Notes: a model not told the origin generated them from the letters alone. A stretch of 64,000 nucleotides of DNA from Patescibacteria group bacterium (GCA_038063755.1 JBBTUL010000006.1:26910-90909); one strand, 5' to 3'. Shown: positions 21,347 to 31,208, counted from the stretch's first letter. Numbers and translations: made by a program.

Positions 21347-21871
21347 ATGTCATCCGAAGTGCCCCAAGGACAAGACCCGACGGTACCATTCGAATTAGAA
21401 AAAAGCCCGGCAAGGGAGGCCTACTTGCTGCTAGGCGCAAAAACTCCACTAGAGTTATCTAATCTGTATTCAGAAGAGGACCAGAGGTTGATGCTCTCTC
21501 AATCTTGGGACTATGGAAACCCTGAGTTGATAGTAAATAAAGTAAAAGAGATTTTAGAATCAATTGATCCTGGTGCACTAACTGAAGACGAGAGAGAGTG
21601 GCGGCAAGAGATACTTTGGTTCTGGTATCACCATGCTATTAGTTGTGCCATCTGGAAGTACAAAGATAAAGATGCTGCACAAAAATACGCTACTAAAGCT
21701 TTGGAGGGTCAGTCATCTGGCCATCCAAATCAGATCACTCGCCTACTGGATCACTTGGTCAATGGTAGGTTGGAAGAGGCGGAACGATGGGCAGAAAGGA
21801 TCCGTGAGGAGCCCGAGAAAAGCACTGCGACTTCCTTGATAAAGGAATATAATGAAGAAGGGTTCTTCTAG
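21347..21871 (+). CDS. hypothetical protein
   Basis: 174-aa ORF, acidic C-terminus, no recognisable motif. The start is uncertain. Confidence 0.3.
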   Translation: MSSEVPQGQDPTVPFELEKSPAREAYLLLGAKTPLELSNLYSEEDQRLMLSQSWDYGNPELIVNKVKEILESIDPGALTEDEREWRQEILWFWYHHAISCAIWKYKDKDAAQKYATKALEGQSSGHPNQITRLLDHLVNGRLEEAERWAERIREEPEKSTATSLIKEYNEEGFF

Positions 21872-22143
21872 ATATCCATCTCCATAATCGTTCGAACATC
21901 GTCCAACCCCGCCAGCACTTAGAAAATCTTAGCGAATTTGTGAGCTTAGATTTTCAAGTGCTCCGATCGAACGTAGCGAGCATCGGAGCTGCCGAGTCAG
22001 AGAGTAAAACAAGCTTAGCAACCCTTACGCTCCGATCAAGCAGGGCGAGTATCGGAGCCACGTCGTCTGAGCGTAGCGACAGCGGAGCCACCCCGAGCGC
22101 AGTTCCGAGTGTCCGAAGAGGGTCGGTGTTGTATGATGAATCA

Positions 22144-22590
22144 ATGATCTACTTAGGAGCAGATAGGCACGGCTTGAAAGCAATAAGTTTTGTTGCAGAC
22201 TTCCTGAGGTCAAAGAACGTAGAATTTGCAAATCTTGGCGTTCAAGAAGAGGGAAGAGATATTAAGCTAGAAGAATTAATCCCAAAGATAGCCGTCGAAG
22301 TTTTGAAAAACAAAAACAACACCGGGATAATGTCTTGCGGTACTGGAGTCGGCGTGGAGGTCGGTGCTAACAAACTTTCTGGCATCCGTGCGTGCCTGGC
22401 TCAAGATGACAAAGTCGCTGAATACGCACGCGTTTACGATGACTGCAATGTCCTTTGTCTTGTTGGTTGGGAGGCTGAGAAGGAAAAGATAAGCAGTATC
22501 GTAAGCGCCTGGCTCAAGACCGATTATGTTGGGGATGAGGCAAGGTCACGCATGTTCGATGCTTTCGATGCCTGGGGAGGTAAGCTTTAA
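22144..22590 (+). CDS. rpiB: ribose-5-phosphate isomerase B (RpiB/LacAB family)
   Basis: MIYLGADRHGL...IMSCGTGVGVEVGANKLSGIRACLAQD...YDDCNVLCLVGW are the RpiB active-site Cys and His motifs. The listed ORF (from a GTG at 21940) carries a 68-aa low-complexity extension that is a translated DNA repeat; it is trimmed here to the ATG at 22144. Confidence 0.8.
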   Translation: MIYLGADRHGLKAISFVADFLRSKNVEFANLGVQEEGRDIKLEELIPKIAVEVLKNKNNTGIMSCGTGVGVEVGANKLSGIRACLAQDDKVAEYARVYDDCNVLCLVGWEAEKEKISSIVSAWLKTDYVGDEARSRMFDAFDAWGGKL

Positions 22591-22675
22591 AAGGATTCCT
22601 ATCGCGTCTGATTCGACAAGTCGGTATCAAAATGGTCTGGTAAAATCTAAAACAGAAAGTTACACTACGAACATC

Positions 22676-28658: not shown

Positions 28659-28678
28659 GTTCTCCTTATAACTAGATT

Positions 28679-29929
28679 ATGTCTTATAACTTATGCTCCA
28701 CAAAAGCTCTGGCTCGTCTAATTCCAAGCATCGTAGCTATAATTTTCATCTTGGCCACTTCCTTGGTATGGGCACAGTCGGATGGTTCGGTGCCACCGGA
28801 TTCGGGAACGACGAGCGTTCCCGCAGATCCATCTATTAAATCTCCCCTGTCGAGTGCCACTACAACAGATGCGTCCGCAGAGCCTTCCTCAAACACGAGT
28901 CCGGCGCGCGCCACGACAACCGGAAGCGGAACCCCGTCTGATGTAACAACGACCACTTCCCGACCCAAACCACCCCAAGGTACACCCACAGCAGTCCCCG
29001 TGAGTCCCGCAGGGATTCGACCGAGCACAGTTCCAACTTCAACTACGGAAGCGACCGCACAAGACACCTCCAACGCGCCGGGAAATCTTTTCTTCGGGTT
29101 TTTAGCCGCGGTAGCCGCCCTTATTCTTGGCACATATGCCGCCATCAAGTTTAAGACACACAGGAATCAAAACCAAAAGGAGGAAAAGAAGGGTTCACGT
29201 TGTCTTAACATCAAAAAACTTTTAGAGAAAAAACTCGAAGAACTTACCGACTTACGTGGCCAGATCGAGAACGCAGCAAAAGAAAAAGTCCGTGAAGGAA
29301 TTCGGGAGGGGGTAAGCGGCACCCGCACGGGCAACCTTTTGGCAAAGATCGAGAGCGCAGAAAAAGAATACGCTCGGCTCAAAAAATTACTTGAAGACTG
29401 CATCGCGAAATTTGGCGGATCAAGGCGTGTGCTGATTGTCGGGCCCTCGTTGTCAGGAAAAACCACGCTCGTTCGACATCTTCGCTCAACGACCAGCCTT
29501 CCCGTTGAAGAGATGGACGAGTTGCTGGTTGCGGCGAATAATGGCACATACCCAAAAGACGTCGCATACAGAAAGGATGTCTTAAGACCAAAAATCGTTA
29601 AAGAAGTTTTAGAGAAAGAAAATATCGTTTTTTTCACAAATACCGACTACTTTACGAAAGAAGACTTGAACACAGCCAGGGCAAAAGGATTCAAAATCGC
29701 ACAACTAACTCTCCCGCCTGAGACGATGCACAAACGGAACGCCGAGCGGATGGAAAAAGAGAGTTACGAAGACCAAAGCGAATGGTTCGGCGACATGCTT
29801 AGCTACCAAGAACAGACAAAGCACCTCGCAGATCGCGTAGTAAGCGCAGATCAGCCGCTAGAAAAGATTGTCGAAGAATTAGGCTTCGACCCAGAAAAGC
29901 TCCGGAATCGCAAGCCTGCCGATAGATAA
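28679..29929 (+). CDS. membrane-anchored P-loop NTPase with an S/T/P-rich extracytoplasmic stalk
   Basis: Signal peptide, a 120-aa Ser/Thr/Pro-rich low-complexity region, a TM (LFFGFLAAVAALILGTYAAIKF), then a cytoplasmic Walker A VLIVGPSLSGKTTLVRHL. Confidence 0.5.
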   Translation: MSYNLCSTKALARLIPSIVAIIFILATSLVWAQSDGSVPPDSGTTSVPADPSIKSPLSSATTTDASAEPSSNTSPARATTTGSGTPSDVTTTTSRPKPPQGTPTAVPVSPAGIRPSTVPTSTTEATAQDTSNAPGNLFFGFLAAVAALILGTYAAIKFKTHRNQNQKEEKKGSRCLNIKKLLEKKLEELTDLRGQIENAAKEKVREGIREGVSGTRTGNLLAKIESAEKEYARLKKLLEDCIAKFGGSRRVLIVGPSLSGKTTLVRHLRSTTSLPVEEMDELLVAANNGTYPKDVAYRKDVLRPKIVKEVLEKENIVFFTNTDYFTKEDLNTARAKGFKIAQLTLPPETMHKRNAERMEKESYEDQSEWFGDMLSYQEQTKHLADRVVSADQPLEKIVEELGFDPEKLRNRKPADR

Positions 29930-29975
29930 ATTTACGGTTATTCTCTTGTCGTCTTAAAAGCGATACCATAGCAAG

Positions 29976-31208
29976 ATGGACTACGATGTTGTCGTTGTCG
30001 GAGGAGGTGCGTCCGGAATGATGGCAGCCGGGCGAGCTGCGGAGCGCGGCAAGCGCGTGCTATTGCTTGAGAAAAACGCCGACCTAGGCTCGAAGCTCAA
30101 GATTACCGGAGGTGGACGATGCAACATCACCAACGCAGAAAAGGACGAGCGAGCGCTTTTGGCGCACTATGGCGAGGCGATGTCTTTTCTCCACTCACCG
30201 TTTTCGCAATTCGGCGTTAAAGATACTTTTTCTTTTTTCGAGTCCCGCGGACTGCCGCTCATCGTACAAGCACGCAAGAGAGCGTTTCCAAAAACCGAGC
30301 GAGCAATTGACGTATCTCGGACACTTGAAAAATACATTCGGAAGAACAAGGTTGAAGTTCGCACCAGAGCAACCGTCAAAAAGATTAAGGCATCAGACGG
30401 GCGTATCGATGCCGTGCTCGTAAACGGCAAAGACGTTACTGCGTCTTCATTCATTTTGGCCACGGGCGGCAAGTCCCACCCGGAAACCGGCTCTACCGGA
30501 GACGGCTTCGCGTGGCTTGCCGCACTTGGACACACGATCAAAGAGCCGACTCCAACCGTCGTTCCCCTTGCTGCACAAGACGAATGGATAAAAAAACTTG
30601 CGGGTGTATCCCTTCCGGCGGTACGCATTAGCTTCTTCCTCGAAAGGAAACGCGGGATTGTTCTGAACGGAGATGTGTTGTGCACACATTTCGGACTATC
30701 TGGTCCACTCATCCTGAATGCCGCTGGCAGCGTCGCGGATCTATTACACGAAGGTGCGGTTACGGCAAGCATCGACGCGCGCCCGATGGATGATATTGGC
30801 TCGCTCGACAAACAGATCACCGCGCTCTTCGATGCGCACAAGAATAAAACACTTAGGAACGTGTGGAACCAAATCGCTCCAGTCGGTACCGGACATGCGC
30901 TGCTCCCGCTCCTGAATGGCATCGACCCGGACATTAAGGTAAACGGCATCAGCAAAAAACAGCGTCGGCAGATCGTAGACCTTCTGAAAGCGCTTCCGGC
31001 AACAATCACCGGCCTCATGGGTTACGATCGTGCAGTTGTCGCCGACGGAGGACTCTCACTCAAAGAAATCGACACTCGAACCATGCGCTCGAAGCGGTAC
31101 AATAATCTTTATGTCACGGGCGACCTACTGCATATCAGCCGCCCCTCCGGCGGATACTCTCTGCAGCTGTGTTGGACTACCGGATATGTGGCAGGAAATA
31201 GCGTGTAG
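29976..31208 (+). CDS. NAD(P)/FAD-dependent oxidoreductase, HI0933/BaiN-like family
   Basis: MDYDVVVVGGGASGMMAAGRAAERG...KLKITGGGRCNITN is characteristic of the HI0933-like flavoprotein family. Confidence 0.8.
   Translation: MDYDVVVVGGGASGMMAAGRAAERGKRVLLLEKNADLGSKLKITGGGRCNITNAEKDERALLAHYGEAMSFLHSPFSQFGVKDTFSFFESRGLPLIVQARKRAFPKTERAIDVSRTLEKYIRKNKVEVRTRATVKKIKASDGRIDAVLVNGKDVTASSFILATGGKSHPETGSTGDGFAWLAALGHTIKEPTPTVVPLAAQDEWIKKLAGVSLPAVRISFFLERKRGIVLNGDVLCTHFGLSGPLILNAAGSVADLLHEGAVTASIDARPMDDIGSLDKQITALFDAHKNKTLRNVWNQIAPVGTGHALLPLLNGIDPDIKVNGISKKQRRQIVDLLKALPATITGLMGYDRAVVADGGLSLKEIDTRTMRSKRYNNLYVTGDLLHISRPSGGYSLQLCWTTGYVAGNSV

Follow-up and report, generated by a model that had tools for sequence, protein, structure and literature searches.

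A tRNA-linked gene array in a Patescibacteria genome

The locus considered here lies in a stretch of 64,000 nucleotides (nt) from a Patescibacteria metagenome-assembled genome (MAG; GCA_038063755.1, JBBTUL010000006.1:26910-90909), which is referred to below as the window. At 21347-31208 it holds an array of eleven open reading frames (ORFs) whose spacers carry three repeated elements, A, B and C; element B also occurs at the 3′ ends of recombinase genes in other genomes. An earlier note, made from the sequence alone, had described eleven genes on a single strand, and all eleven are indeed on the + strand. Most of the identities it proposed hold up: Pfam matches support rpiB (22144-22590), DJ-1/PfpI (22676-23191), a NUDIX protein (25885-26400), a DinB_2/DUF1706 (ClbS-like) protein (26461-26943) and an HI0933-like flavoprotein (29976-31208), and the P-loop protein (28679-29929) has weak P-loop matches. 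The ‘NTase’ at 25280-25783 shows a G-G-G...D-I-D motif by eye only and has zero family matches in Pfam and NCBIfam; it is called the NT-like gene here. The array also includes a Cys-rich protein of 591 amino acids (aa; 23360-25135), which gives only a sub-threshold treble-clef match, and a 142-aa membrane protein, mem142 (27010-27438). Directly 5′ of the array sits tRNA-Gln(ctg) (21245-21317, + strand; called by ARAGORN and scoring 60 bits in Rfam), with PilB and PilC further upstream on the other strand.

A trough of low GC content is limited to the array's first eight genes (hyp174, rpiB, DJ-1, Cys-rich, NT-like, NUDIX, DinB-like and mem142) and starts at the 3′ end of tRNA-Gln. GC content is 0.42-0.44 across 21318-27009 against 0.486-0.497 in the flanks, the trough spans about 21.3-27.4 kb, and individual island genes range from 0.37 to 0.46. 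This low-GC accessory island (21318-27440, + strand, right border approximate) agrees with the accessory island proposed earlier: its GC content is low, it adjoins a tRNA, and the gene content of the orthologous locus differs in relatives. It resembles other tRNA islands in its position at a tRNA 3′ end, its deviant composition and its variable genes among relatives, and no direct repeat of the tRNA 3′ end bounds it. The window has the 3′ part of tRNA-Gln only once, and no alignment of the island spacers to the tRNA-Gln 3′ end beats shuffled controls, for which reason A and C were rejected as decayed tRNA-Gln 3′ fragments.

The Logan contig L001, an independent assembly, corresponds to window positions 21289-27681. 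Its first end is at 21289, and with the 30-nt k-mer overlap the branch point is the tRNA-Gln 3′ end; its other end, at 27681, falls within a 393-aa membrane gene. These breaks may reflect strain heterogeneity, or merely tRNA sequence common to several species.

Variable cargo at the orthologous locus of relatives

The tRNA-Gln/PilB locus could be followed in four other assemblies (loci outside the window carry L numbers). The same strain, recovered from another groundwater sample (L045; PilB identity 100%), has the same island start. In a sister species (L046; PilB 80%) the tRNA-Gln is split in its T-loop by an insert of ~155 nt and is followed by one dCTP-deaminase-like gene, as read from its sequence, and then by a NUDIX orthologue that is 62% identical to that of the window. 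Five genes thus separate tRNA-Gln from NUDIX in the window versus one in the sister species, and only NUDIX is common to both. In a third relative (L048; PilB 72%), a 507-aa large serine recombinase (LSR) overlaps tRNA-Gln antisense, next to PilB; together with its neighbours Mtase, ResIII and HTH_17 it is an integrated element. A fourth (L047; PilB 75%) shows yet another arrangement. The comparison of gene content suggested by the earlier note thus finds L046, L047 and L048 all different from the window, and because the arrangements differ among relatives, the tRNA-Gln/PilB locus is a recombination hot spot with variable cargo, at which serine recombinases act in this lineage.

The split tRNA of L046 has features of its own. 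The interrupted tRNA-Gln(ctg) (9898-9681, - strand) retains nucleotides 1-51 and 58-72 and is missing GTTCGA. Within the insert there is another tRNA-Gln(ctg), which is complete (9733-9804), and the insert ends are 13-nt inverted repeats, CCCCCACACCAAA and TTTGGTGTGGGGG.

Two copies of element B

Element B, GTTCGAACATCGTCCAAYCCC, begins at 21890 and at 26405, 18 and 4 nt past stop codons. These are the sole matches in the window with up to three mismatches (0.00 expected), in keeping with the earlier description of a palindrome-bearing element found twice, straight after stop codons; the features ...CCAGCAC... and TTTGTGA are also present in both spacers. The first copy, B1, spans 21873-21918 on the + strand, with the core GTTCGAAC and a conserved arm ATCGTCCAACCCCGCCAGCAC at 21890-21918 and a weak P′-like left arm at 21873-21889. 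The second, B2, spans 26389-26437 on the same strand; its core and conserved arm occupy 26405-26437, and its P′-like left arm (26389-26404) overlaps the last codons of the NUDIX gene.

The surroundings of the two copies are not alike. A strong hairpin, AGCACTTAGAAAATCTTAGC...GCTTAGATTTTCAAGTGCT, stands just 3′ of B1 (21914-21962, + strand), with a fold z of -5.1 as RNA and -5.7 as DNA. It has no counterpart at B2, and a spacer of L046 has a homologous hairpin region. Two GC hairpins of the form GCTCCGATC-loop-ATCGGAGC follow at 21960-21989 and 22029-22058 (+ strand; two matches, 0 expected), and their loop motif GAACGTAGCGA is common to the window and L046. The stems of these hairpins differ between the window (CTCCGAT/ATCGGAG) and L046 (CCCCGC/GCGGGG, at about 8952-8919), while the loops share GAACGT(A/C)AGCGA. 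In L001 the gene caller runs rpiB upstream through the GC hairpins, which gives it a 62-aa N-terminal extension that is probably spurious.

Folding of the elements as RNA and as single-stranded DNA (ssDNA), a check that the earlier note had proposed, gave a divided answer: the hairpin adjoining B1 is strong, and A1, A2 (both strands) and B2 show no structure beyond that of shuffled sequences (z from -0.6 to +0.8; for A, +0.3 to +0.8). Its likening of the elements to attC sites did not survive, as hairpins, GTTRRRY cores and a recombinase in the window are all lacking. Element B begins GTTCGAA, with C at position 4, and A is without GTTRRRY or the inverse core RYYYAAC. Searches of Rfam at gathering thresholds and at E <= 5-10 returned nothing but tRNAs in the island or in the spacers of L046.

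Element B at the 3′ ends of serine recombinase genes

Element B is not confined to this genome. When one genome per species was scanned for the B 20-mer, eight loci emerged, and six belong to Patescibacteria, namely Liptonbacteria, three Saccharibacteria and two contigs from a single Paceibacterota MAG; the present MAG was not among the matches. A metagenome scan with the same 20-mer added 28 loci, which were sorted by eye: ~17 are low in GC and share a downstream extension, ..CC(T/C)CCC..GCA(C/G), and ~11 are high in GC, lie inside long unrelated ORFs and are probably chance matches. The search for further copies that had been suggested had a mixed outcome, with B in many genomes of the candidate phyla radiation (CPR) and A and C in L046, and none of the three pairs repeated elsewhere in the window.

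The reverse strand of B, GGRTTGGACGATGTTCGAAC, encodes G-L-D-D-V-R-T. This heptapeptide occurs 25-30 codons before the stop of a ~586-aa protein in L015, L016, L019, L024 and L028, and the reverse complement of B is also found near the 3′ end of an LSR gene in L025. The ~586-aa protein carries the domains Resolvase, Recombinase and Zn_ribbon_recom and is therefore an LSR. Its family has thousands of members at 55-80% identity across phyla, with annotations in Thermodesulfobacteriota, Planctomycetes, Aminicenantes, DPANN and CPR. An LSR on an IMG/VR viral contig (L049), retrieved by protein similarity alone and only 51% identical, has TTAGACGATGTTCGAAC at the same place; B is hence conserved at the DNA level and is not merely an artefact of exact matching. 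This locus was the one found by an alignment-based search of viral contigs, where a single-sequence search gave nothing, and scans of viral contigs for A, B and C themselves gave nothing or one probable chance match. Within the 14-20 nt core, B shows no synonymous variation.

The same position in the recombinase gene can be occupied by a tRNA-like sequence. Of 23 LSR homologues picked on protein similarity, 18 have ..(L/V/M)D(D/E/K)VRT(W/Y).., the long or B-type form, and the other 5 have ..WDSN(P/L).., a tRNA T-arm read antisense. One such LSR, P0212, overlaps an intact tRNA-Ser(gga) (L042, L043), and another, P0127, overlaps a tRNA-3′-like fragment (L044). If positions are numbered from the CG of TTCGA, the motif CCCCGCA occupies 17-23 in B-type sites and 12-18 in the tRNA-like 3′ end of P0127 (L044), and tRNA-Ser (L042) has CTCCGCA at 12-18. 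Rutherford et al. (2013) reported that the distal motif, bound by the zinc-ribbon domain (ZD), is shifted 5 bp outward in attP half-sites relative to attB half-sites (PMC3783163), and the displacement between B-type and tRNA-like sites agrees with this rule. CCCCGCA is accordingly a candidate ZD motif. Because the 5-bp shift matches the attP/attB rule, we infer that B represents an integrase-proximal attP-type half-site together with the crossover region; the tRNA segment from T-loop to acceptor would be its attB-type partner.

With an nhmmer profile made from LSR 3′ ends, B1 (21917-21878, E = 8e-6) and B2 (26428-26389, E = 2.4e-6) are the only matches in the window, and both reach slightly beyond the palindrome, into the side that holds the ‘tail’ of the LSR gene. 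The left half of B2 is identical to the P′ arm of L016 at 12 of 20 positions (unrelated sites, 6-9 of 20), and the corresponding alignment of the B1 left arm requires a 3-nt gap. Judged by these alignments, B1 and B2 look like complete but lopsided attP-like sites, with one strong arm and one weak arm, that have been left without a recombinase body. The suggestion in the earlier note that the repeats resemble cassette boundary elements is supported in one respect, as B probably belongs to a family of recombination sites at LSR gene 3′ ends, and not as to their attC form.

Orphan B sites in other genomes

Copies of B that stand apart from a recombinase gene are also present in L006, L007/L040, L008 (two copies), L010/L020, L011, L013, L014 and L044. 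Such orphan sites lie 2-66 nt past the stop codons of unrelated small genes in the window (twice), L006, L010 and L011; outside the window these genes encode a nucleotidyltransferase-like protein, a membrane protein and an HD-domain-like protein, the first and last being sequence readings. In four loci the orphan B is located 573-1196 nt downstream of a same-strand tRNA, and the tRNA differs in each: Gln in the window, Leu in L006, Tyr in L010 and Ser in L011. Four of ~13 independent loci are thus close to a tRNA, where ~3% each would be expected by a rough estimate from typical CPR tRNA density.

Locus L044 combines both kinds of site. An LSR with a short tRNA-like 3′ end (6001-7683) and an orphan B (12706-12725) lie 5 kb apart in the same orientation, with a second LSR and a LexA-like gene in between, and the orphan B retains the C-terminal tail of an LSR without the gene body. 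The arrangement looks like one element inserted into the attachment site of another.

Two further identities for B were tried and set aside. As a promoter it fits poorly, for the apparent TATAAT boxes upstream are largely stop codons and a B copy in L008 lies between convergent genes. As a coding fragment under selection for its protein sequence it fits no better, as the copies differ from one another in the frame of the start codon and in their tails.

A lineage-specific spacer module

Element A, GAGATGGATC-N36-GGGGCTTGA, is found at 23208-23262 and 25789-25843, starting 17 and 5 nt past TAG stops. The two copies with exact N36 spacing were correctly described before; they are the only matches in the window with up to three mismatches (0.03 expected), and by eye the 36-nt interior is ~47% identical between them. 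A third repeat pair, C, at 22086-22124 and 23291-23329, is 79% identical. Spacer alignment joins A and C into a single module of ~125 nt. The whole module is present in spacer S3 (DJ-1 to Cys-rich) and in the post-NUDIX spacer of L046, its first two-thirds in S5 (NT-like to NUDIX), and its last third in S1 (hyp174 to rpiB).

All copies in the window are on the + strand. The full copy (23203-23329), made up of A1 (23208-23262) and C2 (23291-23329), stands between DJ-1 and the Cys-rich gene. A2 (25789-25857), the 5′ two-thirds, stands between the NT-like gene and NUDIX, and C1 (22078-22124; ..AGCCACC..GTTCCGAGTGTCCGAAGAGGGTC), the 3′ part, is upstream of rpiB. A C-like variant, TAGGTTATCCCGCTCGA, lies upstream of the NT-like gene (spacer S4, 25219-25235).

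These sequences recur in the sister species. The full A1/C2 copy matches L046 at 24/25 (CAGCCACYTTGAGATAGGTTCGGAG) and at 11/11, and A2 matches L046 8313-8290 at 22/24 (CTTGTGGGGCTTGAGCCCGGTCGG; CTTGTGGGGCTTGARCCCRGTCGG). The variant TAGGTTATCCCGCTCGA is identical at 17/17 positions to L046 9598-9582 (E = 1.4e-4), where it is upstream of a different gene. The stretch of S1 that begins in the distal half of B1, takes in the hairpin and ends at the loop of the first GC hairpin aligns with the pre-NUDIX spacer of L046 with a score of 40, against 17 +/- 2.4 for shuffles. The island spacers are better conserved than the genes they separate, which would suit functional regulatory elements and sequences that take part in shuffling alike.

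The earlier note had also entertained repeated regulatory or non-coding RNA modules. Modules of that kind are the most likely reading for A and C, although they have no Rfam match and no significant fold. A fold derived from two sequences has 17 predicted pairs with one compensatory change, too few to inform, and the ends of the module offer only a 4-bp CCGA/TCGG pairing.

Other origins for the module were considered and rejected. It is not a repeat of the miniature inverted-repeat transposable element (MITE) or repetitive extragenic palindrome (REP) kind, as its copies occur only in the island and L046 and no target-site duplication is seen there. Element A was likewise dropped as a relic of an LSR 3′ end, since the nhmmer profile of LSR 3′ ends misses it. 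Between the 3′ block of A1, GGGGCTTGAACGATGGTGATAC (23254-23275), and the reverse complement of B2, 16/22 positions agree. This is suggestive, as no other non-self match in the window is better, although a match to the B reverse complement of at least 16/22 arises somewhere in 34% of shuffled windows.

Other features of the island and the window

The Cys-rich protein, 100% identical to AAB495_01435 of a Patescibacteria MAG, belongs to a very large Patescibacteria family (7987 matches among the scored candidates) whose paralogues often stand in tandem, with four consecutive copies in L002 (4724-11779) and two in L046 (16696-20273). Its homologues were dropped as a guide to the island, as the context of the closest ones is unrelated. 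Two island proteins match candidate defence families in PADLOC: mem142 (27010-27438) matches PDC-M50A (E = 3.6e-10) and the NUDIX protein (25885-26400) matches PDC-S07 (E = 2.1e-9).

By eye, TATAAT-like hexamers stand 6-8 nt 5′ of the ATG of several island genes. Examples are TATGAT-N6-ATG at rpiB (22132-22146), TATAAT-N7-ATG at the Cys-rich gene (23347-23362) and TATAAT-N6-ATG at the NUDIX gene of L046 (about 8890-8874). Boxes this close to the ATG suggest leaderless transcripts.

A second, milder dip in GC content (0.44-0.45) is found at about 46-50 kb of the window. It contains a LexA-like S24 repressor gene (46334-46993), adjoining an alpha/beta hydrolase gene and Mur ligase genes.

Origin of the island and of its repeats

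We hold with moderate confidence that the locus is a tRNA-Gln-linked acquired island that carries orphan LSR attachment-site relics, B1 and B2, together with a lineage-specific repeated spacer module made up of A and C. The first eight genes of the array would have been acquired horizontally at the tRNA-Gln 3′ end, in an island built or remodelled through site-specific recombination by the LSRs of mobile elements. B1 and B2 would be orphan attP-type sites of one widespread LSR family, each with a strong half-site (ATCGTCCAAYCC...GCAC), a putative crossover palindrome (GTTCGAAC, which is also the tRNA T-loop sequence) and a weak second half-site. Because the recombinase gene that usually overlaps a B-type site is absent at both, they may mark joins of element-derived DNA to accessory genes. 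They would now be relics, or at most substrates for an LSR supplied in trans. The A/C module would be an intergenic, lineage-specific repeat of the island, kept by the sister species beside different genes. Its role is probably regulatory, for instance as a 3′ or 5′ untranslated region, an operator or a small repeat element, and this is a guess.

Several observations weigh against this account. After canonical LSR integration, attL/attR hybrids remain next to the integrase gene, and we could not derive the layout of intact tRNA, gene and attP-like site from it; this is the main gap. There is no tyrosine or serine recombinase domain in the ~55 ORFs of the 64-kb window, as the earlier note had said of integrases, and tblastn with the B-bearing LSR protein finds zero matches there. 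The recombinase of L048 at the orthologous tRNA-Gln is only 26% identical to the B-bearing LSR of L016. In tRNA-Gln itself the distal motif is at positions 10-15, not 12-18, so this tRNA is not the cognate attB of a B-type site. The inner 11-nt dyad symmetry of the sites in LSR genes, 7-8 of 11, is barely above the 4-6 of 11 in controls, and the best dyad centre of B is the palindromic CG. A palindromic central dinucleotide is unusual for LSRs. Most copies of B were ascertained by exact match, which partly inflates their uniformity. As for A and C, they are detected only in this species and L046, being absent from the rest of the window, from 296 kb of scanned loci and from L042, L044, L047 and L048, and the module has no conserved fold and no Rfam family.

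The repeats could instead be local duplications of a promoter, terminator or operator that co-regulates the island, the likeness of B to LSR genes being incidental. This is unlikely, though parts of it suit A and C: A2 holds a sigma-70-like TTGAGA-17-TAAAAT, C has the palindrome TTCGGAGCGTCCGAA, which stands upstream of gene starts and is kept in L046, and the TATAAT-like boxes seen by eye 6-8 nt before several ATGs point the same way. Against it, neither A1 nor L046 keeps the promoter-like hexamers of A2, and C stands 7 nt from the -10-like box in one copy but 17 nt from it in the other. The explanation breaks down for B, as its exact 20-mer and extension recur in Saccharibacteria, Paceibacteria and Liptonbacteria, in LSR genes and beside unrelated genes.

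Quite improbable, in our view, is an integron-like capture system based on LSRs. It would consist of single-gene units that each have an attP-like site, mimicking the T-arm and acceptor of a tRNA, after the stop codon, and that gather downstream of tRNAs. A resident or visiting LSR, acting in cis or in trans, would shuffle the units, with exact B copies being active or fresh and A/C decayed or accessory; such a system would exist in Patescibacteria and possibly in other phyla with the same recombinase family, all of which we regard as equally doubtful. The placement of B within 2-66 nt of the stops of unrelated small genes in several genomes, four times one or two genes downstream of a tRNA, speaks for it. 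The conserved spacers around variable genes in the window and L046 suit it as well, as does the 5-kb segment of L044, with its second LSR, between the tRNA-like-ended LSR and the orphan B-plus-tail site. The notion that every post-stop spacer of the island is a decayed B was nevertheless rejected, for once B1 and B2 are removed these spacers are no more B-like than those of 50 control genes (Mann-Whitney p = 0.135). In addition, A is missed by the LSR-3′ profile, a recombinase is lacking in the window, there is no sign of excision or circular forms, and LSRs are not expected to recombine attP with attP (PMC3783163).

It is very improbable that B has a host function of its own, as a small peptide (M..GLDDVRT..) or as a small RNA. 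Short reverse-strand ORFs, MLAGLDDVRTIMEMDI and MCWLWGLDDVRTALMEPA, and terminator hairpins after several B copies speak for this; against it, L006 and L010 have their start codons in another frame (MRRIGRCSN), the copies vary in ORF length and tail, the 14-20 nt core is free of synonymous variation, and B has neither an Rfam match nor a fold. Classical integron gene cassettes with attC sites are scarcely credible: the short same-strand genes with elements right after their stop codons recall them, but A (on either strand) and B2 form no ssDNA hairpin, an R″/R′ inverted core is lacking, the window has no IntI or other tyrosine recombinase, and B maps to serine recombinase genes instead.

Significance and relation to known systems

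CPR genomes are tiny, and the route by which they gain accessory genes is poorly understood. The locus yields a searchable marker, a sequence of ~30-50 bp tied to a very widespread LSR family, which flags acquired genes beside tRNAs in Saccharibacteria, Paceibacteria, Liptonbacteria and the present MAG. If the orphan sites still recombine, they would allow a cassette-like exchange that runs on serine, not tyrosine, recombinases, and would offer genome engineering a set of natural attP/attB pairs whose target is tRNA-like. Should they be no more than relics, the locus is a tRNA island of the ordinary kind whose scar is unusually well conserved.

The closest parallels for B are the attachment sites of serine integrases such as A118/LI, Bxb1 and phiC31. 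Like an attP, B lies at the end of an LSR gene, has a conserved arm of ~24 nt beside a short core, and carries its distal 7-9-nt motif 5 bp further out than its tRNA-like partner (PMC3783163). The sites in the window differ from these in being multi-copy chromosomal orphans without an adjoining integrase and in the palindromic CG of their putative centre. Integron cassette arrays are similar in their layout of unrelated short genes on one strand, each followed by a short element; the window differs in having no hairpin-forming attC, IntI or GTTRRRY, and in a B that is tied to a serine rather than a tyrosine recombinase.

Islands beside tRNAs are also built by the tycheposons of Prochlorococcus, in which successive integrations are thought to push older material inward and leave degenerate remnants. 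Partial copies of the target tRNA are interspersed in tycheposon islands, and a minority of tycheposon-type elements use LSRs (bioRxiv 10.1101/2020.12.28.424599). The island of the window likewise adjoins a tRNA and has variable cargo, whereas its spacers are unlike the tRNA-Gln 3′ end and its repeats are of the element type (attP-like) and common to several phyla. In staphylococci, staphylococcal cassette chromosome (SCC) islands are formed by the CcrAB serine recombinases at one chromosomal site, the 3′ end of rlmH, where short direct repeats, integration-site sequences of about 15 bp, bound tandem modules, some of which have no recombinase (ccr-less pseudo-SCC elements). Serine recombinase chemistry, short repeats and recombinase-less modules are what the two have in common; the difference is that the window has no ccr-like gene. 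What sets the present locus apart is that attP-like repeats stand alone after single accessory genes and are almost unchanged across deep CPR lineages.

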